From assembly GCA_937903605.1 (NCBI GenBank), contig CALCZC010000025.1, positions 206,618 through 270,617 on the forward strand: 64,000 bases of DNA, in the 5' to 3' direction. Positions 6,349-51,180 of the stretch are shown in pieces. Numbering within the stretch: position 1 is the stretch's first letter; each line of letters begins with the position of its first letter. A program made the translations under genes and the position numbers. This stretch comes from an uncultured bacterium. Its GTDB lineage: Bacteria; Patescibacteriota; Patescibacteriia; Magasanikbacterales; GWA2-37-8. Under the pieces are notes generated by a model that was given only the letters and a program-made list of their open reading frames with translations, did not search any database and was not told where the DNA came from.

Positions 6349-6712
<364 letters not shown>

Positions 6713-6812
6713 CAAAACACATTATCTAAAATAAAAGATAGTGTTGTTTTTAGGAAAACAACAGGGTTAATAAGGATATATTAAAGTTCATTAAAAAAAA
6801 CTCGGAGGGAAC

Positions 6813-13989: not shown

Positions 13990-14444
13990 GTAGAAATTCT
14001 AAGCTCTAATCCCTAAATCCTAAACAATATTTAATATTAAATAAAAAATTAATCTTTGAATATGATAGAACCGAATATTTTCATTAATTGTGTAGCTTCA
14101 TCTATTAAACTTTTTTGATTTTCTTCTTCTAGAGTTACAGATAATCTTAACCATAAAATAGATTCTTTTGCTTCTTTACGACAAATTTTAATTCTCATCA
14201 TAAAATCTTTTTGACTCAACGCTTCACAAGCCTCTATATAATTTGCCGCCACAGAACCGGATGATCTAATAAGTTGTTTACCATATTCAATATTAGAAAT
14301 AGTTCTAGGCAAGCTTTTAATAAAATCTCTTACATTTCTTGCAAAAATAAAAGTTCTTTCTTCCAAATCGTAGTTTGTTCTTTTTTGTTTTTGAATTTCC
14401 TCCATTTTATATTGTTTAGAATTTAGAGCTTAGAAATTAGAGCT
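13990..14444 (-). mobile_element. IR-bracketed cassette carrying a four-helix-bundle (23S-IVS-type) protein gene, inserted between two MacB-like permease genes
   Basis: Left arm AAGCTCTAATCCCTAAATCCTAAACAATAT (13997-14030) and right arm ATATTGTTTAGAATTTAGAGCTTAGAAATTAGAGCTT (14406-14442) are imperfect inverted repeats that differ by one 7-bp unit. Confidence 0.5.
14049..14405 (-). CDS. four helix bundle protein (TIGR02436; 23S rRNA intervening-sequence protein family)
   Basis: 118 aa; ...GKQLIRSSGSVAANYIEA...EAKESILWLRL... matches the family signature. Confidence 0.8.
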   Translation of the reverse strand: MEEIQKQKRTNYDLEERTFIFARNVRDFIKSLPRTISNIEYGKQLIRSSGSVAANYIEACEALSQKDFMMRIKICRKEAKESILWLRLSVTLEEENQKSLIDEATQLMKIFGSIIFKD

Positions 14445-15680
14445 TCACTCGTAACGTAGTGCTTCTATTGGATCAAGTCTGCTTGCTTTACGCGCCGGAA
14501 TAATTCCAAAAACCAAACCTACTCCGACAGAAACAAAACAACCCAAAAATATCGCAGAAAAAGAAATAATGAATTCCCAATCATAACCCAACCCTTGAGC
14601 TATCCTAGCTACAACAAAAGAAATCATAACTCCCAAAAAGATTCCTATGATTCCACCAAGCGAGGTTATCATTACTGACTCTATCAAAAATTGAATGGTG
14701 ATATTTTTGTTTTTTGCACCCACTGCTTTACGCAACCCTATTTCTCTGGTTCTTTCTTGAACTGCGGCAAGCATAATATTCATAATTCCGACTCCACCCA
14801 CAAGCAGCGCGATAGCGGCTACGGCCACCAAAAACATAGTTAGGGCGTCAGTTATTTGTGTAACCGATTCCAATCCTTGCGCCATGGAACGAATGGAAAA
14901 ATCATCATTTTCCGGATTATCTATATCATGTCGCTCGCGTAAAACTATTTTGGCTTGATCCACCGCACTTTCTACATTTTTTGCTTCGTCAACTTTCAAT
15001 CTGGCAAAACTGACATGATCTATCCCAAGCAATAATTTTTGCGCCGTGGTCAAAGGGACAAAAATCTGGTCATCTTGATTTTGCATCCCGGAAACTCCTC
15101 TTTCTATCATCACCCCAATAACAGTAAAGAAGGTTTTTTTAATTTTTATTTGTTTACCGAGCGGATCTTCGTCCAAAAAAAGATCTCTGGCTGCATCATA
15201 GCCCAATACTGCTAATCTAGAATTTGTCTTTTCTTCTTCCTGAGTAAAAAATCTTCCTTTTTCAACTTTAGTGTCTTCCACCAAAAGATATTCGGCATTG
15301 ACACCGGTAAAATTAGTATCTATTTTTTGATCTTGCCAAGAAACAGTGTCTGTGCCTTTGACATAACCGGTACCGGCAATAAAATAAGGGATTTCTTTGA
15401 TCAGTTCTTTTATGTCGCCGTCAGTTAGAGTTGTTATAACCACACCCATCACCGAAGCCGGCGGACCTTTTTCATCCGCTTTACCTGGGAGTATACCTAC
15501 CAGATTTGTTCCCATACTTTTTACTTGATTGAGAATCAGACTTTGCGCCCCAGCACCAACTGACATTACTACAATCACCGACATCACGCCGATAACAATT
15601 CCAAGCATCGTCAAAAACGACCGAATTTTATTTCGGCCGATTATATGCCAAACATTTTTGATATTTTCAAAAATATCCAT
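14445..15680 (-). CDS. ABC transporter permease, MacB-like (second paralog)
   Basis: 411 aa; same architecture as 12739..13983; ends PIEALRYE. Confidence 0.75.
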   Translation of the reverse strand: MDIFENIKNVWHIIGRNKIRSFLTMLGIVIGVMSVIVVMSVGAGAQSLILNQVKSMGTNLVGILPGKADEKGPPASVMGVVITTLTDGDIKELIKEIPYFIAGTGYVKGTDTVSWQDQKIDTNFTGVNAEYLLVEDTKVEKGRFFTQEEEKTNSRLAVLGYDAARDLFLDEDPLGKQIKIKKTFFTVIGVMIERGVSGMQNQDDQIFVPLTTAQKLLLGIDHVSFARLKVDEAKNVESAVDQAKIVLRERHDIDNPENDDFSIRSMAQGLESVTQITDALTMFLVAVAAIALLVGGVGIMNIMLAAVQERTREIGLRKAVGAKNKNITIQFLIESVMITSLGGIIGIFLGVMISFVVARIAQGLGYDWEFIISFSAIFLGCFVSVGVGLVFGIIPARKASRLDPIEALRYE

Positions 15681-21429: not shown

Positions 21430-22262
21430 TCGCTCAAATTGACGAAAAGACCCCTGTGTCTTCAGTCAAATCGGCGAAAGTTCGTTTCAAAACACCAAAA
21501 CCCGCTCGCCAAGGAGGTTCAGATGAACCGTACGAGAGATCGACCGTAAATTTCCCGGTCCAAAACTGAGATCTTTTTTTTAAGAAAACGTCGCAGATCC
21601 AGTAGGACAAATCTCATCGGCAAAGTTCGGTTTTCCAGGACATGTTCCCGGAAGCCTTAACCTGAACCGCCCAATCGGCGCGCCAAACAGCGCAATAAAG
21701 CGCAGGAGGTGTAGGATGTCCAGCATCCGCGATGGTCCCAAGTAATACAATCGTAACTGAACAACCATCTACGAAAAAAGTTTTGATGTTCCGTTCCTCC
21801 CGCCGTCGCCGACGCCTAGAATGGCGCCCCGTGCCCCGGCTTTCGTGGCACTTTTCCGGCGGGTTAAACACGCGAAGGCTAAACGGCATGTCGACGAGGT
21901 TAGGGTCGAGAGATTTCGACCTGGGCTACGTTTTTTTGTACCTCGCGGCAAAGACCGTTTTGGCCCATATCCGGCGTCAGGTCAGCCTCTCTGTAACTTT
22001 TGGAAATGTGTTCCTATGTCCAAGTGACGAGGAGACACTTTCCACTTTCAAAAAAGTTAGAGAGGCTGACACGCCGAGCGAAAATTGCGGATAAACCGGA
22101 TCAGCTTAAAAAACCGGTGATCTCCGCACCAACGTCAAGGCGATTTCTAGGCTTCCGGATCGCCCACGGCTCATCTGCCGTGTACAGTGAAGTCACATTT
22201 TCCCCGGTCTGCGATCAACAACTGAGCGCTCAGTGTTGATTCGCAGCCGGGGCGTTTTTTTT
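21430..22262 (+). ncRNA. large (~0.83 kb) GC-rich structured non-coding RNA of unknown class, flanked by tRNA-Pro genes
   Basis: GC ~50% against ~33% background; only overlapping Arg-rich pseudo-ORFs on both strands; bounded by a consensus promoter and a strong terminator; many local and long-range helices; internal hairpin plus T8 at 21533-21580. Confidence 0.6.
22201..22262 (+). terminator. strong intrinsic terminator (~24-bp interrupted stem followed by T9)
   Basis: CCCCGGTCTGCGATCAACAACTGAGCG / CGCTCAGTGTTGATTCGCAGCCGGGG then CGTTTTTTTTT. Confidence 0.8.
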
Positions 22263-22342
22263 ACATACGAATAAATAGATACTAATATACAAATTGTACT
22301 AATGATACGAATGCTATACGAAAATTTATACGAATGAACAAA

Positions 22343-22417
22343 TTTTAGATTTATGATTTTTGATTTATGAATTACCGTTTTTGTCATTCTAAAATCTGCA
22401 ATCTAAAATCTGAAATT
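22343..22417 (+). repeat. ~75-bp AT-rich composite repeat, copy A (TTTAGATTTATGATTTTTGATTTATGAATTAC...TGTCATTCTAAAATCTGCAATCTAAAATCT)
   Basis: 7-bp periodicity; near-identical copies at 24216-24293, 26158-26234 (inverted) and 49671-49794. Confidence 0.7.
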
Positions 22418-23888: not shown

Positions 23889-24215
23889 TTAGTTGATTTT
23901 TACTTTGGTAAACGGTTGACGATGTCCGTAAGCTTTGTGGTATCTGACTTTTCGTTTGAATTTTTCCACAAGAATCTTTTTGGCACGGCCTTGCATTTCT
24001 ACACTGGCTTCTACGGTCATTTCCAAATATGGAGTACCGATTTTAACATCAGAACCGTCATCTTTGGCAGTCAAAAGGACTTTGTCAAAAACAACTTTCT
24101 CACCTTCTTTAACGGCAAGTTTTTCAATTTTAATGGCATCGCCGGTTTTTACCAAATATTGTTTACCGCCGGTTTCAATAACTGCGATCATAGTTTTGTG
24201 ATTAAATTTATCCAA
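23889..24215 (-). CDS. rplU: 50S ribosomal protein L21 (bL21)
   Basis: MIAVIETGGKQYLVKTGD... is the canonical L21 N-terminus; the true start is probably the internal Met at 24191. Confidence 0.9.
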   Translation of the reverse strand: MDKFNHKTMIAVIETGGKQYLVKTGDAIKIEKLAVKEGEKVVFDKVLLTAKDDGSDVKIGTPYLEMTVEASVEMQGRAKKILVEKFKRKVRYHKAYGHRQPFTKVKIN

Positions 24216-24293
24216 TTTTAGATTTATGATTTTTGATTTATGAATTACAGTTTTTTTGTCATTCTAAAATCTGCATTCTAAAATCTAAAATTC
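24216..24293 (+). repeat. ~75-bp AT-rich composite repeat, copy B (in the rplU 5' leader)
   Basis: Same sequence family as 22343-22417. Confidence 0.7.
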
Positions 24294-24869: not shown

Positions 24870-24904
24870 AAATTAATTATTAGAAATATTGAATATTAAA
24901 TATT

Positions 24905-24975
24905 GGATATTAACCACCCCTCGCCCCTCCTTCGTAAGGAGGGGAAAATATTCAATATCCAGTATTCAGTATTAA
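24905..24975. repeat. GC hairpin element CCCCTCCTT-CGT-AAGGAGGGG flanked by inverted AATATTGAATATT repeats, copy 1
   Basis: Core at 24924-24944; second copy at 48257-48276; three tandem variants in-frame inside rarA at 48877-48971. Confidence 0.65.
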
Positions 24976-26024
24976 ATATTTTGTTTATTTTTTCTCGCCA
25001 ACCAAAAACCCAAACACAGCATAGCCACACACAACAATCCCAAAACCAAAAGCTTTTGCCAGCTTTGTAAAAATAAAGTAGTAAAACCAAAGGCAAAAGC
25101 AATGATATAAAATAATATTACACTTTGACGATGGCCCAGTCCTGCATCAACAAGTTGAAAATGCAGATGTCGTCTATCGCCTTTATAAAAAGGTTGTTTG
25201 TGTAAAATCCTCATGAAAATAACTCGCGCTAAATCCAAAATCGGAATTGCCATTACCAAAAGTGCGGTAGCAATTTTTCCGCCAGCGATAACTGCGAGTA
25301 CTCCAAGCAGAAATCCGAGCAGTAATGATCCACCTTCGCCCAAAAATATTTTTGCCGGATAAAAATTAAAAAATAAAAATCCCAAACATGCACCTGCCAA
25401 AATCAAAGCTAACGTGGCAGTTTCAGGTTGAAAAAATTTGGCAGTATTGGAAAGTGAAGCGATCATCAAAGCACCGATAAAAACTATCCCTGTAGTTAAA
25501 CCATCCAGACCGTCCAAAATTTTTGTAGTGTACATCATCCCGAGTAACCAGAAAAAAACTATTAGATCAGCTAAAATAAAAATATGACCGTAGCCAAATA
25601 AATCAAGCCCAAAAATTTCCAAATTAATAATTCCACCAAAAGGATTTGTGACCATTTGTAAATCTACTCCACCAAGTACAGCGATAGCTATAGCCGCGCA
25701 AGTTATCATTAATCTTTTCTTGGCTGATAAATTTTCTTTATCATCAAAAAATCCCAAAATCATCAAAATGACACTTCCCAAAAATACCCCTATAAATTCA
25801 CGAGGTTCAATATGGCGATGAAAAATATCGGTAAAAAAAGACAAATACCCTACTACTGACCAAAAACTCAAAAATATTGCCAAACCGCCCAAAAGTGGAA
25901 CATTGCGACCGTGAAGTTTGCGAATTCCTTCGGGTTTATCCACAATATCCAATTTTTTAGCTAATTTTAGCGTAAAAAATGTAAAAATAAGGGATAATAT
26001 GAAAGTTATAAGAAAATATTGCAT
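24972..26024 (-). CDS. GT4-family polyprenyl-phosphate N-acetylhexosamine-1-phosphate transferase (WecA/TagO/MraY family; WecA-like by N-terminus)
   Basis: 350 aa, ~10 TM; KLDIVDKPEGIRKLHGRNVPLLGGLAIF resembles the WecA N-terminus. An MraY assignment cannot be excluded by eye. Confidence 0.6.
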   Translation of the reverse strand: MQYFLITFILSLIFTFFTLKLAKKLDIVDKPEGIRKLHGRNVPLLGGLAIFLSFWSVVGYLSFFTDIFHRHIEPREFIGVFLGSVILMILGFFDDKENLSAKKRLMITCAAIAIAVLGGVDLQMVTNPFGGIINLEIFGLDLFGYGHIFILADLIVFFWLLGMMYTTKILDGLDGLTTGIVFIGALMIASLSNTAKFFQPETATLALILAGACLGFLFFNFYPAKIFLGEGGSLLLGFLLGVLAVIAGGKIATALLVMAIPILDLARVIFMRILHKQPFYKGDRRHLHFQLVDAGLGHRQSVILFYIIAFAFGFTTLFLQSWQKLLVLGLLCVAMLCLGFWLARKNKQNI

Positions 26025-26157: not shown

Positions 26158-26234
26158 TTTTAGATTTTAGAATGCAGATTTTAGAATGACAAAAAATGAT
26201 AATTCATAAATCTTAAATCATAAATCTTAAATTT
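26158..26234 (-). repeat. ~75-bp AT-rich composite repeat, copy C (inverted; in the rpmA 5' leader)
   Basis: Reverse complement matches copies A and B. Confidence 0.7.
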
Positions 26235-26242
26235 ATTAAAGT

Positions 26243-27604: not shown

Positions 27605-27678
27605 TGTCATTCCCGCGAAGGCGGGAATCCAGTGGCCGTTTTGATTTTTCCTGGATCCCCGCCTTCGCGGGGATGACA
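27605..27678. repeat. GC-rich nested-hairpin palindromic element (TGTCATTCCCGC-GAAG-GCGGGAATCCAG ... CTGGATCCCCGC-CTTC-GCGGGGATGACA)
   Basis: ~28-bp terminal inverted arms, each itself an 8-bp GC hairpin with a tetraloop; related copies at 42790, 46690, 47491 and 51009. Confidence 0.7.
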
Positions 27679-42715: not shown

Positions 42716-42789
42716 AAAGTTTTATAAAGTTTTTCCAATTTATGATTTATGATTTTAGAATTATGAATTATGATTTACAATCGACAAGT

Positions 42790-42880
42790 TGTCATCCTGA
42801 ACCTCAGGTGAAGGATCCCTTAAACAATGTTTAAAAAAATAGTTAAACTACAAGGGATTCTTCGCTCCGCTCAGAATGAC
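42790..42880. repeat. GC-rich palindromic element of the GTCATYCTGAAC...GAAGRATCCC family
   Basis: Arms GTCATCCTGAACCTCAGGTGAAGGATCCC and, reverse-complemented, GTCATTCTGAGCGGAGCGAAGAATCCC; embedded in an AT-repeat copy ending AATCTGCATTCTAAAATCTAAAATT. Confidence 0.65.
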
Positions 42881-42923
42881 GAAATGGTTTACCAATCATC
42901 AATCTGCATTCTAAAATCTAAAA

Positions 42924-43931
42924 TTATTCGCACATCAGTGCGACAAGTTCTTTGAACTTGACTTTCGGTTCCCACCCAAGAATATTCTTCGCTTTGGTGG
43001 CATCACCTAAAAGTAAATCCACTTCCGCCGGACGAAAATAACGTTTATCTATTTCAATAATAGTTTTACCGGTATTTTTATCTATTCCCACTTCCTGTAT
43101 CCCGCTCCCCTGCCAAACAATATCAAAACCGAAATATTTTCCCGCAACTTCAGCAAATTCGCGCACAGTATGAGTTTCTCCAGTGGCAATAACATAATCA
43201 TCGGGTTTATCTTGTTGAAGCATTTTCCACATCGCTTCTACATAATCTTTTGCATATCCCCAATCGCGTTTGGCATCCAGGTTGCCTAAATATAATTTTT
43301 CTTGTTTACCTTCTTTGATATTTCGTAACGCATCGGTGATTTTTTTGGTAACAAAGGTCCCGCCACGACGAGGAGATTCGTGGTTAAAAAGAATTCCGTT
43401 ACAGATAAACATATCATATGACTCGCGATAATTCACACACAGCCAATGCGCGTAAACTTTAGCACAAGCATAAGGACTGCGCGGATAAAAAGGCGTTGTT
43501 TCTTTTTGCGGAGTTTCTTGTACCTTACCAAACATTTCAGATGATCCAGCTTGATAAAATCTGGTTTTTATACCGGTCTCTTTGATAGCGTCCAGCAATC
43601 GTAAAGTTCCCAGTCCATCGGTATTACCTGTGAAAACCGGCATTTCAAAACTTACTTGCACATGACTTTGTGCACCGAGATTATAAATTTCATCAGGTTT
43701 TATTTGCTCCAAAAGGCGAGAAATATTACTACCATCGGTCAAATCTCCATAATGCAAAAACAATTTTACACCGTTCACATGCGGATCTTGATAAAGATGA
43801 TCAATGCGAGAAGTATTGAAAGTGCTGCTACGGCGAATCAAACCATGAACTTCATAGCCTTTAGATAGTAATAACTCGGCTAGGTATGAGCCATCTTGGC
43901 CGGTTATGCCGGTGATGAAAGCTTTTTTCAT
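42924..43931 (-). CDS. gmd: GDP-mannose 4,6-dehydratase
   Basis: [22 protein letters not shown] is the canonical Gmd N-terminus. Confidence 0.9.
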
Positions 43932-43957
43932 ATGTATAATCCGAATAACAATTTAAA

Positions 43958-44434
43958 GATTTAAAGATTGAAAGATTTAAAGATTGTTAAATTGTGTAAC
44001 TATTTTTTGTAATGTAAATTATCCAACAAATAACTACGAAAATTCGATAAATGGGTAGAAATCTTGTATATTTCTTCAATTAAATTTTCTGCTGTTTTAT
44101 TTTCTATATAATTATTATCCAATAAAATATATAGAATCGTTCTGACTTCTCCAGCTGAACCTTTGGCAATATTTATAAAATTAGCAAATTCTTTATTTGA
44201 ACTTCTTTCAAAACCTTCAGCTATATTTAAAGAGATTGAATAGGTCGCTCTTTTTAATTGATCACAGATAGAATAGTCCTTTTTTAATTTTTGATTATCG
44301 TCAATCAACTTATAAATATTAGCAACAAATTTTCTTGAAATTTGCCAAATTGGAATATCTTCAAATTTTTTATACTGCATACCCTCCCTTATTAATTAAA
44401 TTTTTAATCTTTAAATCTTTCAATCTTTAAATCT
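43958..44434 (-). mobile_element. cassette with perfect ~29-bp inverted repeats bracketing a second four-helix-bundle protein gene
   Basis: GATTTAAAGATTGAAAGATTTAAAGATT at 43958-43987; its exact reverse complement AATCTTTAAATCTTTCAATCTTTAAATC at 44406-44434. Confidence 0.6.
44000..44380 (-). CDS. four helix bundle protein (TIGR02436; 23S rRNA IVS protein family), second copy
   Basis: 126 aa; ...ATYSISLNIAEGFER...GSAGEVRTILY... family signature. Confidence 0.8.
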   Translation of the reverse strand: MQYKKFEDIPIWQISRKFVANIYKLIDDNQKLKKDYSICDQLKRATYSISLNIAEGFERSSNKEFANFINIAKGSAGEVRTILYILLDNNYIENKTAENLIEEIYKISTHLSNFRSYLLDNLHYKK

Positions 44435-46589: not shown

Positions 46590-46689
46590 TAGCATAATCT
46601 GATATTTCAGATTTATGATTTCAGATTGATGATTTCAGATTTATGATTAATAAATATTGGATATTAGAATATTAGATATTAAAATAATA

Positions 46690-46854
46690 TGTCATTCCCG
46701 CCTCCGAGCGGGAATCCAGTAGTTCGTCATTCTGAATTTATTTCAGGATCTCCCTTTTGTGGCTCAGTAGGGAGATGCCGAAACAAGTTCGGCATGACAC
46801 TTTGTGCTAATTTTTCCTGGATCCCCGCCTTCGCGGGGATGACACAACCTGTCA
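46690..46854. repeat. composite/nested GC-rich palindromic element (TGTCATTCCCGC...GCGGGGATGACA with an internal GTCATTCTGAAT...GGCATGACAC element)
   Basis: Same conserved termini as 27605-27678, with a second element nested between the arms. Confidence 0.65.
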
Positions 46855-46925
46855 TTCTAAAATCTGCAATCATAAATTGTTTGCTAACAAAATAAAACCC
46901 CTATCAGATTAATAAATATATATTT

Positions 46926-47429
46926 ATGAAAGAGTTATTAATTAAGAATGAGAAGGAAATGCTTGATTTCGGAAAAAAAATCGCCGCTGAACTTAAAAGC
47001 GGAGATGTTTTGTGTTTGTATGGGGATTTGGGGGCTGGAAAAACTACGATAACCAAGGGGGTCGCTCAATATTTCGGGATTAAAAAAAGAATCACCAGTC
47101 CGACATTTACTATTTTTAATGTTTATAAATTATCTACAGAAAATTATAAACCGGATCAACCCGACTTCGCTAAAGCTACGCCGGGCAAGCTAAATTTATC
47201 CGAATGCCCCGAATGCAACAAAAAGCCGAAATTATTGGTGCATATCGATGCTTATAGGGTAAAAGACGAGGAAGAATTGTTGGATGTAGGCATTGATGAT
47301 TATTTGGGAGATAGTGAGACTGTTTGCGTGGTAGAATGGGCGGAAAAAGTACCAGATCTTCTTAAAAAAAAGAAATGTGTAGAAGTACACATTGAACACA
47401 CGGAGACGGGACGAAAAATACGATATTAA
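46926..47429 (+). CDS. tsaE: tRNA threonylcarbamoyladenosine biosynthesis ATPase TsaE
   Basis: P-loop GDLGAGKTT and overall YjeE/TsaE fold, with a ~30-aa insertion. Confidence 0.7.
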   Translation: MKELLIKNEKEMLDFGKKIAAELKSGDVLCLYGDLGAGKTTITKGVAQYFGIKKRITSPTFTIFNVYKLSTENYKPDQPDFAKATPGKLNLSECPECNKKPKLLVHIDAYRVKDEEELLDVGIDDYLGDSETVCVVEWAEKVPDLLKKKKCVEVHIEHTETGRKIRY

Positions 47430-47490
47430 TCTCAAAAGTCAAAACGCAAAAGTCAAAACCAAAACCTTAAATGTCAAAACTAACACAAAG

Positions 47491-47581
47491 TGTCATTACG
47501 AATCCGCAAAGCGGATGAAGTAATCCCACTGTTTTCTGAATTTTGTGGGATTGCTTCGTCATTACACTCCTCGCAATGACA
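47491..47581. repeat. GC-rich palindromic element (TGTCATTACGAATCCGC-AAA-GCGGAT ... TCGCAATGACA)
   Basis: Same family; lies between the convergent tsaE and queH genes. Confidence 0.6.
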
Positions 47582-47586
47582 AGGTT

Positions 47587-48168
47587 TTAAGGTTTTAAGT
47601 TGTAGTTTTGAGATTTGACATTTGAGTTTTGAGTTCGGTTTTCTACCGAAAACCGACATCCACAATAATCCTGCCGATAAATCTTTCTATCAGCAACCAT
47701 CTTCCTTCCCTTCTCCTGTCTTCCTCCTGTTTTCCAATCAACATCTAAAAACTTCAAACCAAGCTTTTTGGCGATACTGCTCCCAAGTGGATGGATAACA
47801 TCCGCTTTTTTGTTTCTACCACTGGTCAAAGTAGTGGCAAAAATATCAAAACTATTTTTAACTGCATATTCTCCGGCTTTTTGAAGGCGTATGACAAAAC
47901 ATTTTACACATCTGACACCACCTTCGGGAGCATTTTCTAAACCTTTGACACTTTCTTCCCATTTTTGCGTTTCATAATCCGCATCAACCATAGGTATTTT
48001 CCATTCTTTACAAACACGAACTACTTCGGCTTTACGTTTTAAATATTCTGACTCCGGATAAATATTTGGATTATAAAAATAAACCGTCAAATCATAGAGG
48101 CCTTTCAATTCATCGATGATAGCGATACTGCAGGGAGCGCAGCATACATGAAGTAAACACCTTTGCAT
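47587..48168 (-). CDS. queH: epoxyqueuosine reductase QueH (DUF208)
   Basis: LLHVCCAPCS and YRQDYCGC cysteine motifs. Confidence 0.75.
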   Translation of the reverse strand: MQRCLLHVCCAPCSIAIIDELKGLYDLTVYFYNPNIYPESEYLKRKAEVVRVCKEWKIPMVDADYETQKWEESVKGLENAPEGGVRCVKCFVIRLQKAGEYAVKNSFDIFATTLTSGRNKKADVIHPLGSSIAKKLGLKFLDVDWKTGGRQEKGRKMVADRKIYRQDYCGCRFSVENRTQNSNVKSQNYNLKP

Positions 48169-48229
48169 AAAAAATTTATAAATTTCAAGATTTAAAGATT
48201 AAAAGATTGAAAGATTTTGATATTGGATA

Positions 48230-48295
48230 TTGAATATTAAATATTAACCACCCCTACCCCTCCTTCGTAAGGAGGGTAATATCCAGTATTCAATA
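48230..48295. repeat. GC hairpin element CCCCTCCTT-CGT-AAGGAGGG with flanking AATATT repeats, copy 2
   Basis: Core at 48257-48276; same as 24924-24944. Confidence 0.65.
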
Positions 48296-48303
48296 TTCAT
48301 TAT

Positions 48304-49653
48304 TTATTTTCGCAAGTATTTTTTATTTTTCAACTCTTCCGGCAAATATTCTTGATCAACAGGTCCGGTGTGATCCGGATTATATTTATAACCATCACCA
48401 TAACCGATATCTTTCATAAAACCCGTCACTGCATTGCGCAGGTGAAGTGGTACACCCAGATGAGAAGTATTTTCCGCATCTTTCATCGCCTTTTCATAAG
48501 CCACATACAACAAATTGGACTTGGTGGATTTGGCGCAATAAACTACAGCTTGAGCTAGATGAACTCCGCATTCAGGCATACCCAAACGATGACAAGCGTC
48601 GTACGCGGCATTGGCTTGGATAAGCGCTTCGCCATTGGCCATACCAATATCCTCACTGGCAAATCTGACCACTCGTCGCGCCACATAAAGAGGATCGGCT
48701 CCACCCTGCAACATTCGAGCTAACCAATAAATAGCAGCATCCGGATCGCTACCGCGCATAGATTTGTGTAGCGCGGAAATGAGGTTATAAAATTCCTCTC
48801 CTTGTTTATCAAAAACCACGTTTACTTTTTGTGCCGCTTCTTTAACAATTTCTTTGGTGATGTCTACCTCACCCCGCCCCTCTCCTTTTAAAGGAGAGGG
48901 TGACTGACCTCCCCCCGCCCCTCCTTCGTAAGGAGGGGATAATTGTCCCTCCTCTCCTTGCGAAGGAGAGGATTGAGGTGAGGTCTTCACCGCTAACTCC
49001 AAAATATTCAATGCTGTCCGCGCATCACCACCGGAAAAAAAGACGATACTTTTAATCACCTCATCATCAATTTTTATTTTTATATCTCCCAATCCTCGCT
49101 CTTTGTCCATCAACGCTCTTTTTATCACTTGAACCAAATCCTCTTCACCAAGAGATTTCAAAACAAAAACTCGCGAACGAGAAAGTAAAGCGCGAATAAT
49201 TTCAAACGAAGGATTTTCCGTAGTAGCGCCGATAAGAATTATTTCTCCCTGTTCTACATAAGGCAATAATGCATCTTGTTGGGCTTTATTCCAACGATGA
49301 ATTTCATCAATAAATAGAATAGTGCGCAAATTTTCTTTTTCTTTTTTTTCTTTGGCCACTATTACTGCCTGACGCAACTCTTCTTTACCGCTCATCACCG
49401 CAGATAGTTGAATAAAGTGAGATTTTGTTTTAGTGGCAATAATTTTGGCCAAAGTTGTTTTACCTACTCCCGGTGGTCCCCAAAAAATCAATGAAGTTAA
49501 ATCATCGCTTTCTATCAAACGGCGCAATATCTTACCCTGACCCACGATATCGGCCTGTCCAAAAAATCCGTCAAAATCAAGAGGACGCATACGCTCGGCG
49601 AGAGGAACAGAGTTTGTTGCTACAGTTTGAATTTTGTTCTGTTTAGGAGACAT
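48304..49653 (-). CDS. rarA: replication-associated recombination protein A (RarA/MgsA AAA+ ATPase) with ~40-aa low-complexity insertion
   Basis: GPPGVGKTTLA, DEIHRWNKAQQD, C-terminal MgsA_C; the insertion SPSQGEEGQLSPPYEGGAGGGQSPSPLKGEGRGE is encoded by three tandem GC hairpin repeats. Confidence 0.85.
   Translation of the reverse strand: MSPKQNKIQTVATNSVPLAERMRPLDFDGFFGQADIVGQGKILRRLIESDDLTSLIFWGPPGVGKTTLAKIIATKTKSHFIQLSAVMSGKEELRQAVIVAKEKKEKENLRTILFIDEIHRWNKAQQDALLPYVEQGEIILIGATTENPSFEIIRALLSRSRVFVLKSLGEEDLVQVIKRALMDKERGLGDIKIKIDDEVIKSIVFFSGGDARTALNILELAVKTSPQSSPSQGEEGQLSPPYEGGAGGGQSPSPLKGEGRGEVDITKEIVKEAAQKVNVVFDKQGEEFYNLISALHKSMRGSDPDAAIYWLARMLQGGADPLYVARRVVRFASEDIGMANGEALIQANAAYDACHRLGMPECGVHLAQAVVYCAKSTKSNLLYVAYEKAMKDAENTSHLGVPLHLRNAVTGFMKDIGYGDGYKYNPDHTGPVDQEYLPEELKNKKYLRK
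48877..48971. repeat. three tandem GC hairpin repeats (CCCTCTCCTTT-T-AAAGGAGAGGG; CCCCTCCTT-CGT-AAGGAGGGG; CCTCTCCTT-GCG-AAGGAGAGG) in-frame inside rarA
   Basis: Same family as the intergenic copies at 24924 and 48257. Confidence 0.65.
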
Positions 49654-49670
49654 AATCTTTATAAAAAATA

Positions 49671-49794
49671 TTTTAGATTTATGATTTATGATTTAAGAAT
49701 TATGAATTATGTAACAAAATACAAAATATTACAAAATTACAAAAAAGATAAGTTGTCCTGTCATTCTAAAATCTGCATTCTAAAATCTAAAATT
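49671..49794 (+). repeat. AT-rich composite repeat, copy D (with a ~45-bp internal insertion)
   Basis: TTTTAGATTTATGATTTATG...TGTCATTCTAAAATCTGCATTCTAAAATCTAAAATTC. Confidence 0.65.
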
Positions 49795-51008: not shown

Positions 51009-51126
51009 TGTCATTCTGATCCGCCCAGGCGGAGAAGAATCCCTTGTATTTTAAATGTTTTTAAGAAGCATTGTTTAAGAGATCCTTTCCCAACGGGACC
51101 CCTTTGGGGCACACGTTCAGGATGAC
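51009..51126. repeat. GC-rich palindromic element (TGTCATTCTGATCCGCC-CAG-GCGGAGAAGAATCCC ... GAGATCCTTTCC...CAGGATGAC)
   Basis: Same terminal consensus family GTCATYCTGA...GAAGRATCYC. Confidence 0.6.
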
Positions 51127-51180
51127 GAACTGTCGGTCGTAATTATAAAATCATAAATCTGAAATCACAAATCATCAATT

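Follow-up and report, generated by a model that had tools for sequence, protein, structure and literature searches.

Inverted pairs of NTS/SRM-type hairpins, presumed Ssn nuclease substrates, in a Candidatus Magasanikbacteria genome

The closest described counterparts of the repeats reported here are the hairpins targeted by the Ssn nucleases. The Neisseria Transformation Sequence (NTS) has a 28-nt consensus, CGTCATTCCCGCGMAVGCGGGAATCYRG, that contains the dRS3 repeat, while the Ssn-related motif (SRM) is degenerate and is written as HGTCWYN(0-2)YYVSBRHN(0-5)WNVSBRGN(0-2)RNCYNB (Chenal et al., Nat Commun 2025, PMC11893778). SsnA is a small single-domain GIY-YIG protein that binds and cuts NTS hairpins only as single-stranded DNA (ssDNA), on one strand only, and is inactive on RNA; for the Neisseria enzyme the GTC before the palindrome was found to be most important for cleavage and the C after it most important for binding (PMC11893778). 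Four species have been tested, and in each the NTS/SRM motif served as an ssDNA substrate for Ssn nucleases; ssn genes are often flanked by the motif (PMC11893778). Related arrangements in Neisseria are the NIMEs, short variable segments bounded by inverted dRS3 pairs (PMC11893778). Two questions were left open by the Ssn study: the spread of NTS/SRM repeats as mobile elements, and their role outside Neisseria (PMC11893778). The main text of that paper mentions neither Patescibacteria nor MITE-like doublets of the motif.

Anatomy of the palindromic elements

The window, by which we mean the whole 64,000-nt stretch of Candidatus Magasanikbacteria DNA that was analysed, was found to carry six palindromic elements (12 arms) across five loci, with one element nested in another. 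Proteins identical or nearly identical to those of the window are named Candidatus Magasanikbacteria, and the window forms part of the 348-kb contig NODE_23 of ENA ERZ724087. Each element is a doublet in which two arm hairpins, each written (T)GTC-AT…AT-C, are inverted relative to each other, and the arm spacers within doublets are 13-50 nt long. The doublets are as follows.

27605-27678, unstranded: doublet c1 (the named element), with left arm 27605-27632 (+ sense), right arm 27651-27678 (- sense) and a spacer of 18 nt
42790-42881, unstranded: doublet c2, with an AT-rich spacer of 29 nt
46690-46844, unstranded: doublet c3 outer, of the c1 type, with arms 46690-46719 and 46817-46844
46725-46799, unstranded: doublet c3 inner, within the spacer of c3 outer, recovered by the inverted-repeat scan
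47491-47581, unstranded: doublet c4, with arms GTCATTACGA[ATCCGCAAAGCGGAT]GAAGTAATCCCAC and GTCATTGCGA[GGAGTGTAATGAC]GAAGCAATCCCAC
51009-51127, unstranded: doublet c5, the right arm of which has a longer double apical hairpin

An earlier sequence-only reading had placed five intergenic palindromes at these loci, and all five are real; their coordinates were refined and the third was split into an outer and an inner element, a nesting recognised by comparison with the uninterrupted spacer of c1. The right end given for c3, 46854, was corrected to 46844, the excess being five spacer bases and part of an TGTCATTC octamer at 46850-46857. The consensus ends that had been proposed, GTCATYCTGA…GAAGRATCYC, describe c2, c5 and c3 inner but not the others: c1 and c3 outer have the ends GTCATYCCCGC…GCGGGRATCCAG, and c4 has GTCATTRCGA…GAAGYAATCCCAC. 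The account of the arm hairpins and their loops was correct as it stood.

The general layout of an arm runs (T/C)GTC, AT-xyz, an optional GA, a variable apical hairpin, an optional GA(A), z'y'x'-AT and C(C/T)C. The arms of c1 form a 28-nt inverted repeat that is 93% complementary according to the inverted-repeat scan. Those of c2 read GTCATCCTGA[ACCTCAGGT]GAAGGATCCCTT and GTCATTCTGA[GCGGAGC]GAAGAATCCCTT, and c3 inner has the arm stems ATTCTGAA/TTCAGGAT and ATGCCGAA/TTCGGCAT together with a central stem, ATCTCCCT/AGGGAGAT. The string GTCATYCYR occurs 13 times in the window, where 2.0 occurrences were expected. A detector that calls GTCAT followed by a 5-bp self-complementary stem and C returned 11 arms, all 11 inside the six doublets; 200 shuffled sequences gave 2.0 on average and never more than 7. 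Fold z-scores ranged from -1.4 to -12 depending on the copy, the strand and the energy set, with c5 the weakest. The GC content of the elements (40-58%) is above that of their 100-nt flanks (20-34%). Over the ~78 kb formed by the window and its flanks, seven doublets and one solo arm were counted when the L230 sequence is included. An apparent clustering of doublets in the glycan gene island (27-51 kb) was dropped, as further copies lie just right of the window.

Arm sequences differ within an element (ATTCC/ATCCC, ATCCT/ATTCT, ATTAC/ATTGC and ATTCTGAA/ATGCCGAA), and in each doublet one or more of these differences is balanced by a matching change within the arm concerned. Within arms, the outer stem positions form 59 of 60 Watson-Crick pairs plus one G-T pair; when the identical positions are paired between arms, seven mismatches and six G-T pairs result. 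The GTC before the palindrome and the C after it are kept in all 12 arms. Since differences are compensated within arms and not between them, what is conserved is each arm's own hairpin, together with the fixed GTC and C on either side of it, rather than the long palindrome; the intra-arm hairpins are under selection for local folding. A regular pairing of an ATT-type arm with an ATC-type arm was also observed.

Relationship to the NTS/SRM motif and to WsnRNA46

Judged by their sequences, the arms are members of the NTS/SRM hairpin family, the targets of Ssn nucleases, here in a host of the Candidatus Magasanikbacteria (Patescibacteria). The left arm of c1 (27605-27632) departs from the 28-nt NTS consensus at its first base only, the other 27 positions being identical. 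The SRM pattern is matched by three arms (27605-27632, 27651-27678 and 46817-46844), where shuffled sequence gave an expectation of 0.08. It is failed by eight or nine of the 12 arms, one of which has a longer loop while seven or eight combine a bipartite stem (GA…GAAG) with an additional apical hairpin. These bipartite-stem arms share the frame of the motif though the literal SRM pattern misses them.

Similarity at the level of the whole doublet was found with an RNA family of Wolbachia. When Rfam was searched in a permissive mode, c1 matched RF02625 (WsnRNA46, Wolbachia sRNA 46) over the full 151-position model at 58.0 bits (E 2e-12 for that stretch) and c3 scored 33.7 bits, both values lying below the gathering score of 65.3 for this family; c2, c4 and c5 gave no WsnRNA46 match in this mode, and a scan of the window at gathering thresholds returned tRNAs only. 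The WsnRNA46 consensus is itself a doublet, GTCAT…GGATCCAG-spacer-CTGGATTCC…ATGAC. It resembles c1 in (i) its ends, GUGUCAUCC…GGAUGACAC; (ii) its inner junction, GGAUCCAG…CUGGAUUCC; and (iii) a similar start of the spacer (GAAAAAU), so that the likeness extends over the whole doublet.

The elements thus share with NTS/SRM repeats a multi-copy, intergenic and hairpin-forming character, the combination of GTC, an AT…AT palindrome and C, and the outward-GTCAT orientation of paired motifs seen in the SRM-ssn-SRM units of Shinella and Rhizobium plasmids. The host, like many SRM-rich species, has a reduced genome of symbiont type; it is compact, with ~0.9 Mb and 35% GC. The copies differ from the published SRM-ssn-SRM units in being gene-less doublets, and many of their arms depart from the published SRM pattern by the bipartite stem, tandem GA/GA and variable apical hairpin. 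The core of dRS3, ATTCCC-N8-GGGAAT, is contained in the arms of c1 and c3; however, compared with the dRS3 repeats and NIMEs of Neisseria, the doublets have far shorter spacers (13-50 nt) of unrelated sequence, and the host belongs to a different phylum.

Neither the doublets nor their arms are confined to the window. A more distant Magasanikbacterium (L126) also carries doublets of the NTS/SRM-type family, and arms of the type GTCATTCTGA…GAAGAATC were detected in at least 120 IMG/VR contigs. Among the matches listed from these contigs, the apical parts are non-random and GCGNAGC is the commonest apical module; d(GCGNAGC) forms an unusually stable DNA mini-hairpin. Adjacent +/- arm pairs were separated by a spacer of ≤120 nt in 49 of 69 cases among the matches listed, which makes the doublet the usual arrangement elsewhere as well. 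Eight wider arm pairs in the IMG/VR loci (313-2159 nt apart) enclose no GIY-YIG or transposase-like open reading frame, and a tblastn comparison of the window GIY-YIG protein with the 120 listed arm-bearing viral loci gave no match.

Presence, absence and relocation among strains

Equivalent regions of related genomes were compared with the window: (i) GCA_036744835.1, a 906-kb contig with ~84% nucleotide identity (L215/L231); (ii) JGI 3300010342, with 85-98% identity over aligned blocks (L218); (iii) L233, in which the epimerase has 92% amino-acid identity; and (iv) L125, which is syntenic at ~80% amino-acid identity. The elements were found to be missing from close strains at four of the five loci. 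At the c1 site, L233 keeps the order UDP-glucose dehydrogenase then epimerase with a spacer of only 9 nt and no c1, and L231 has AT repeats but no c1. The wzy-tsaE spacer, which holds c3 in the window, is empty in L215 and L125; the block 46590-46910 is entirely missing in L215, and its place in L218 is taken by a c4-type doublet with AT flanks. This L218 copy upstream of tsaE spans 189 nt and is 95.8% identical to window positions 47447-47635, AT flanks included. The spacer between tsaE and queH holds c4 in the window and a c2/c5-type doublet in L215, while that of L218 is without a doublet. The pld-uvrD spacer of L215 is without c5.

A further c4-type doublet was found within the queH coding sequence of L218, whereas the corresponding sites of the window and L215 are empty. 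The insertion is in frame and encodes NNSVIASPQGEAIPQNSESSGIATSSTSRRTPRNDNYCHP, read as …VIASPQGEAIP…TPRNDN…, and the QueH protein is 227 aa long in L218 compared with 193 aa, a net gain of 34 aa (a 40-codon block). The three c4-type copies have near-identical spacers and different apical arm hairpins. The elements therefore vary in presence between strains, change position and can enter coding sequence, and are mobile or rapidly turning over rather than fixed regulatory hairpins. Neither of the two outcomes that the sequence-only reading had named as speaking against it, restriction of the copies to the window and conservation of their positions across relatives, was found. Strain-level relocation and an in-frame coding insertion go beyond what was reported for the motif in PMC11893778. 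The remark of the sequence-only reading that reading frames through the repeats yield peptide strings is borne out by the in-frame translation of this L218 doublet. The palindromic elements of Rickettsia and Wolbachia (RPE and WPE) insert into protein-coding genes, and the queH insertion is like them in placing a palindromic repeat in frame in a conserved gene that is not destroyed. WPEs are counted among mobile elements (PMC4898810).

At four of the five loci the elements occupy the centre of a larger AT-rich inverted repeat made up of 7-8-nt periodic words; the repeats referred to here are listed below, together with a lone octamer beside c3.

42742-42927, unstranded: AT-rich outer inverted repeat around c2, with arms 42742-42775 and 42894-42927
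46850-46857, + strand: lone TGTCATTC stub, 5 nt past the right end of c3
47428-47629, unstranded: AT-rich outer inverted repeat around c4, with arms 47428-47471 and 47586-47629

The AT-rich repeat at 47428-47629 appears to move together with c4, its flanks being present in the L218 copy. The centre of the AT repeats reads GAATTACA-N7-TGTCATTC, and the TGTCATTC octamer is also central in "empty" AT-rich repeats at 22382, 24257, 26184 (- strand) and 49759. Several copies had been described as starting at or inside this octamer; the link is literal for c3 only and does not extend to the other copies. The target-site preference that had been suggested from it was not upheld. A lone TGTCATYC also stands 5 nt beyond the right end of the L218 queH insertion, but in this one clean filled/empty comparison the extra TGTCATCC comes in with the insert, and the TGTCATYC stub, considered as a target-site or footprint signature, showed no enrichment beside 48 unrelated doublets. 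A lone ATGACA precedes the solo arm in L230.

Target-site duplications were seen neither beside the six doublets nor where filled and empty queH sites were compared, and no clean footprint was resolved; recombination among AT-rich repeats could thus explain part of the turnover. In its full form this explanation holds that the elements are immobile and that strains differ because homologous or illegitimate recombination among AT-rich intergenic repeats shuffles the DNA enclosed between them. The AT-rich surroundings of four of the five loci, the AT flanks brought along by the relocated c4 copy and the presence of other GC hairpins in a like AT context in the spacers of relatives speak in its favour. 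However, c3 inner and the queH insertion are without AT-rich flanks, and the arm family is also found in Wolbachia, Neisseria, Rhizobiaceae and many IMG/VR contigs without AT repeats of this kind. We therefore regard recombination as a process that may contribute to turnover but cannot account for the flank-free nested and coding insertions, and as the whole explanation it is highly improbable.

Candidate enzymes, alternative readings and a proposed mechanism

Possible candidates for a partner enzyme are small GIY-YIG genes in and near the window, although the doublets may instead be acted on by an Ssn orthologue encoded elsewhere in the ~0.9-Mb genome.

1-103, - strand: N-terminal part of the second 85-aa GIY-YIG paralogue, running off the window; the full gene is at L227 11159-11416
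6377-6634, + strand: 85-aa single-domain GIY-YIG gene (Pfam PF01541, E 1e-15), a candidate Ssn relative, adjoining tRNA-Lys
L227 14746-15003: third 85-aa single-domain GIY-YIG gene

The three GIY-YIG proteins align over their full length with 94-aa proteins of Rhizobiaceae at 34% identity, with the catalytic residues conserved. For two of the three plasmid copies of these homologues examined (Shinella, Rhizobium), hairpins that fit the SRM pattern exactly stand on either side of the gene, oriented with GTCAT outward. The window doublets look as this SRM-gene-SRM arrangement would, had the gene been lost. The three Magasanikbacteria genes have no GTCAT arms flanking them; each lies next to a tRNA gene, part of the tRNA being duplicated, and is accompanied by an inverted repeat of another kind, an arrangement common to the GIY-YIG homologues of other Patescibacteria. 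The C-terminal tail (NPxWxDL type) found in the SRM-flanked proteins of rhizobia is missing from the encoded proteins, which score about as well against UPF0213 proteins. No motif-flanked Ssn-type gene was detected in the window and 14 kb of flanks, and no autonomous GTCAT-type arm-gene-arm copy was seen in Patescibacteria. CCTCACC ends that seemed to link the GIY-YIG cassette with the MgsA insert were rejected (four occurrences vs 2.5 expected, not significant).

The alternative that fares best, though an unlikely one, is that the doublets are RNA-level features, either a small RNA like WsnRNA-46 or terminator, attenuator or stabiliser hairpins, that are kept for regulation and vary through fast intergenic evolution. 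It draws on the 58-bit score of c1 against an Rfam sRNA family, the reviews that describe WsnRNA-46 as expressed in Wolbachia (PMC12796755), the strong RNA folds, and the location of c1, c2 and c5 between co-directional genes and of c4 between convergent genes. Against it, none of the doublets was called terminator-like and no T-run follows the stem on either strand; the copies occur in both orientations and in contexts as varied as promoter spacers (c3), sequence that follows stop codons (c1) and the interior of a gene (L218 queH); and they are absent at orthologous sites of strains that are 84-98% identical. The unit that is conserved, moreover, is the arm hairpin with its GTC and C flanks, which is needed for Ssn action on ssDNA. 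Transcription of the doublets would be compatible with a DNA-level origin.

It is very unlikely that the doublets are REP/REPIN-type elements mobilised by a RAYT, that is, an IS200-like Y1/HUH transposase. In REPs the tetranucleotide GTAG is conserved on the 5′ side of the palindrome; all arms here start with (T/C)GTCAT, the 5′ box thus being GTCAT and not GTAG. The likeness in kind is considerable, as REP, REPIN and BIME repeats are also short imperfect palindromes with a conserved 5′ box, arranged as inverted doublets, non-autonomous and probably acting as single-stranded hairpins, and the REPIN architecture in particular, with two inverted short hairpins, a short spacer, intergenic location and multiple copies, is matched. 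Some Patescibacteria contigs (L209-L214) even encode a 239-aa protein with a weak match to PF01797 (Y1_Tnp) beside a GIY-YIG gene. However, the Y1_Tnp gene of L209 has no GTCAT arms around it, the near-exact match of the arms to the NTS/SRM consensus argues for the other family, and the documented partner of the NTS/SRM motif is a GIY-YIG nuclease rather than an HUH enzyme. Neither a Y1_Tnp gene nor any other transposase (DDE, Y1/HUH, recombinase or RAYT) was identified among the called genes of the window and 14 kb of flanks (~78 kb), so the RAYT or transposase partner that had been anticipated did not turn up. The earlier suggestion of a MITE or REP/BIME-like mobile family is thus apt as to kind (inverted, self-folding doublets), but the family is NTS/SRM and not REP/BIME. 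Classical MITEs, moved by cut-and-paste through a DDE transposase that recognises TGTCAT…ATGACA as terminal inverted repeats, would share the inverted termini, small size, many copies and presence/absence polymorphism, but are highly improbable given the lack of target-site duplications at the six doublets and the queH insertion, the lack of a DDE transposase in ~78 kb of genome, and "terminal repeats" that are unlike each other yet internally compensated, as fits selection on hairpins and not a duplex transposase-binding site.

Overall, the elements are probably inverted pairs of NTS/SRM-type hairpins that are presumed to serve as substrates of an Ssn-family nuclease, with the doubt falling mostly on the enzyme and its chemistry and less on the family. 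The layout of a doublet is that of an SRM-ssn-SRM unit minus the gene, so the elements would be non-autonomous derivatives comparable to MITEs and REPINs. With the arms facing each other, each strand would carry one forward-sense motif at its own 5′ end. Replication, DNA uptake or cruciform extrusion would expose the region as single strands in which the arms fold locally, and an Ssn-family GIY-YIG nuclease encoded in trans would bind each forward arm. On either strand its nick would fall a few bases 5′ of the bound arm, immediately beyond the element. Such nicking could drive excision, copying or spread of the doublet; as in Neisseria, the cutting of incoming ssDNA might also shape recombination. 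The position at the apex of AT-rich palindromes suggests that insertion may occur into single-stranded hairpin loops. We infer both the acting enzyme and the transposition chemistry in this scheme.

The strongest version of the scheme, which we consider rather doubtful, is that SRM doublets are true non-autonomous ssDNA transposons that depend on a small GIY-YIG nuclease, supplied in trans, for their movement and favour the apical loops of existing palindromes. Insertion into apical loops, if it occurs, would explain why doublets are centred in AT-rich inverted repeats and lie inside one another, and the abundant tRNA-linked 85-aa GIY-YIG cassettes might be the autonomous partners of the doublets. 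To our knowledge, GIY-YIG-driven transposition chemistry of this kind has not been demonstrated for any element. If the doublets were such transposons, the Magasanikbacteria strain series would provide natural filled/empty pairs for defining the mechanism.

The SRM/NTS family was known before, as was the doublet form in WsnRNA46; the host phylum, the evidence for mobility between strains and the in-frame coding insertion are new. For annotation, reading frames through the repeats and in-frame inserts can inflate the count of "hypothetical" peptides in CPR genomes. The doublets vary among strains sharing 84-98% identity, which gives a tractable set of natural insertion/empty-site pairs. The locus bears on both questions left open by the Ssn study, as the motif, even in a doublet of the WsnRNA46 type, occurs in the genome of a Patescibacteria episymbiont.

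Hairpin elements beside and within genes

The GTCAT-arm elements continue into the same-genome sequence that flanks the window on the right (L230), and a hairpin insertion and a run of extra residues were also found, each within one gene of the window:

L230 2642-2733: additional doublet (two inverted arms) of the type at 27605-27678, ~1.8 kb past the window's right end
L230 3306-3334: solo arm, TGTCATCCCCGCGAAGGCGGGGATCCAG, ~1.2 kb past the right end
48866-48984: in-frame nested-hairpin insertion inside the MgsA/RarA gene (48304-49653, minus strand)
around 47140-47225: extra residues in TsaE (tsaE, 46926-47429)
24884-24981 and 48220-48303: AT-rich palindromes with a central GC hairpin

The solo arm was found to be preceded by an ATGACA stub and followed, 12 nt later, by the ATG of the next gene. 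The MgsA/RarA insertion is of a different family from the GTCAT-arm doublets, with outer ends ACCTCACC…GGTGAGGT that enclose three inner hairpins. The insertion is absent from MgsA/RarA of the close strain L215 (GCA_036744835.1; 414 aa versus 449 aa in the window) and likewise of the syntenic relative L125; the close strain L218, whose alignment is continuous through 48985, appears to carry it. TsaE of the window has ~26 additional residues (…KPDQPDFAKATPGKLNLSECPECNKKPK…) that divide its Pfam match into two and that are not present in L125. The central hairpin of the two AT-rich palindromes is CCCCTCCTTCGTAAGGAGGG(G), and that of the MgsA/RarA insertion, CCCCTCCTTACGAAGGAGGGG on the coding strand, is a near-identical variant. 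Hairpins of the CCCCTCCTTCGTAAGGAGGG(G) type are a second GC-hairpin family of this genome.

tRNA-adjoining genes and a putatively structured stretch

Further features were identified in the window and elsewhere:

6349-6713 and 1-346 of the window, 14690-15260 of flanking same-genome sequence L227, L205, and Patescibacteria contig L209: small GIY-YIG genes adjoining tRNA
21560-22265, plus strand: GC-rich stretch of ~700 nt, noted for fold, terminator and base composition
14049-14405 and 44000-44380: PF05635 "23S rRNA-intervening sequence protein" genes

The GIY-YIG genes (84-85 aa) each adjoin a tRNA gene (Lys, Gln, Asn), whose 5′ end is partly duplicated at most of these sites. Next to tRNA-Lys, 11 nt are repeated in this way (GGGCCGGTAGC), and the GIY-YIG gene there carries a separate inverted repeat, CCCTCACCTATGCCTTT / AAAGGCATAGGTGAGGG. 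This layout was found again in other Patescibacteria, and the unit looks like a tRNA-targeting, homing-type cassette. The stretch at 21560-22265 (GC 0.49-0.59 versus 0.35 for the genome; RNA fold z-score −10.6) is closed by a perfect intrinsic terminator, a palindrome at 22203-22252 followed by T8. No credible ORF was found in it, and an Rfam search relaxed to E ≤ 0.1 gave zero matches; the stretch may encode a large, structured non-coding RNA. One of the two PF05635 copies sits within a strain-variable glycan gene cluster.

Palindromes in AT-rich spacers

Periodic AT-rich words of 7-8 nt (AGATTTA/TCTAAAA, AAGATTT, AATATTG) fill nearly every intergenic spacer, form inverted repeats, and vary among close strains. 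Examples, with other small GC-rich palindromes in AT-repeat surroundings, are:

22339-22412, 24214-24292, 26160-26235, 43950-43999 and 49670-49793 of the window: AT-rich repeat spacers
L125 930-1100 and 2893-2977: other palindromes, CCTGCCTGCCGGTAGGCAAGG, and CACCCCTGTGAAAT…ATTTCACAGGGGTG

Since the L125 spacers hold these other palindromes, several hairpin families colonise AT-repeat spacers.
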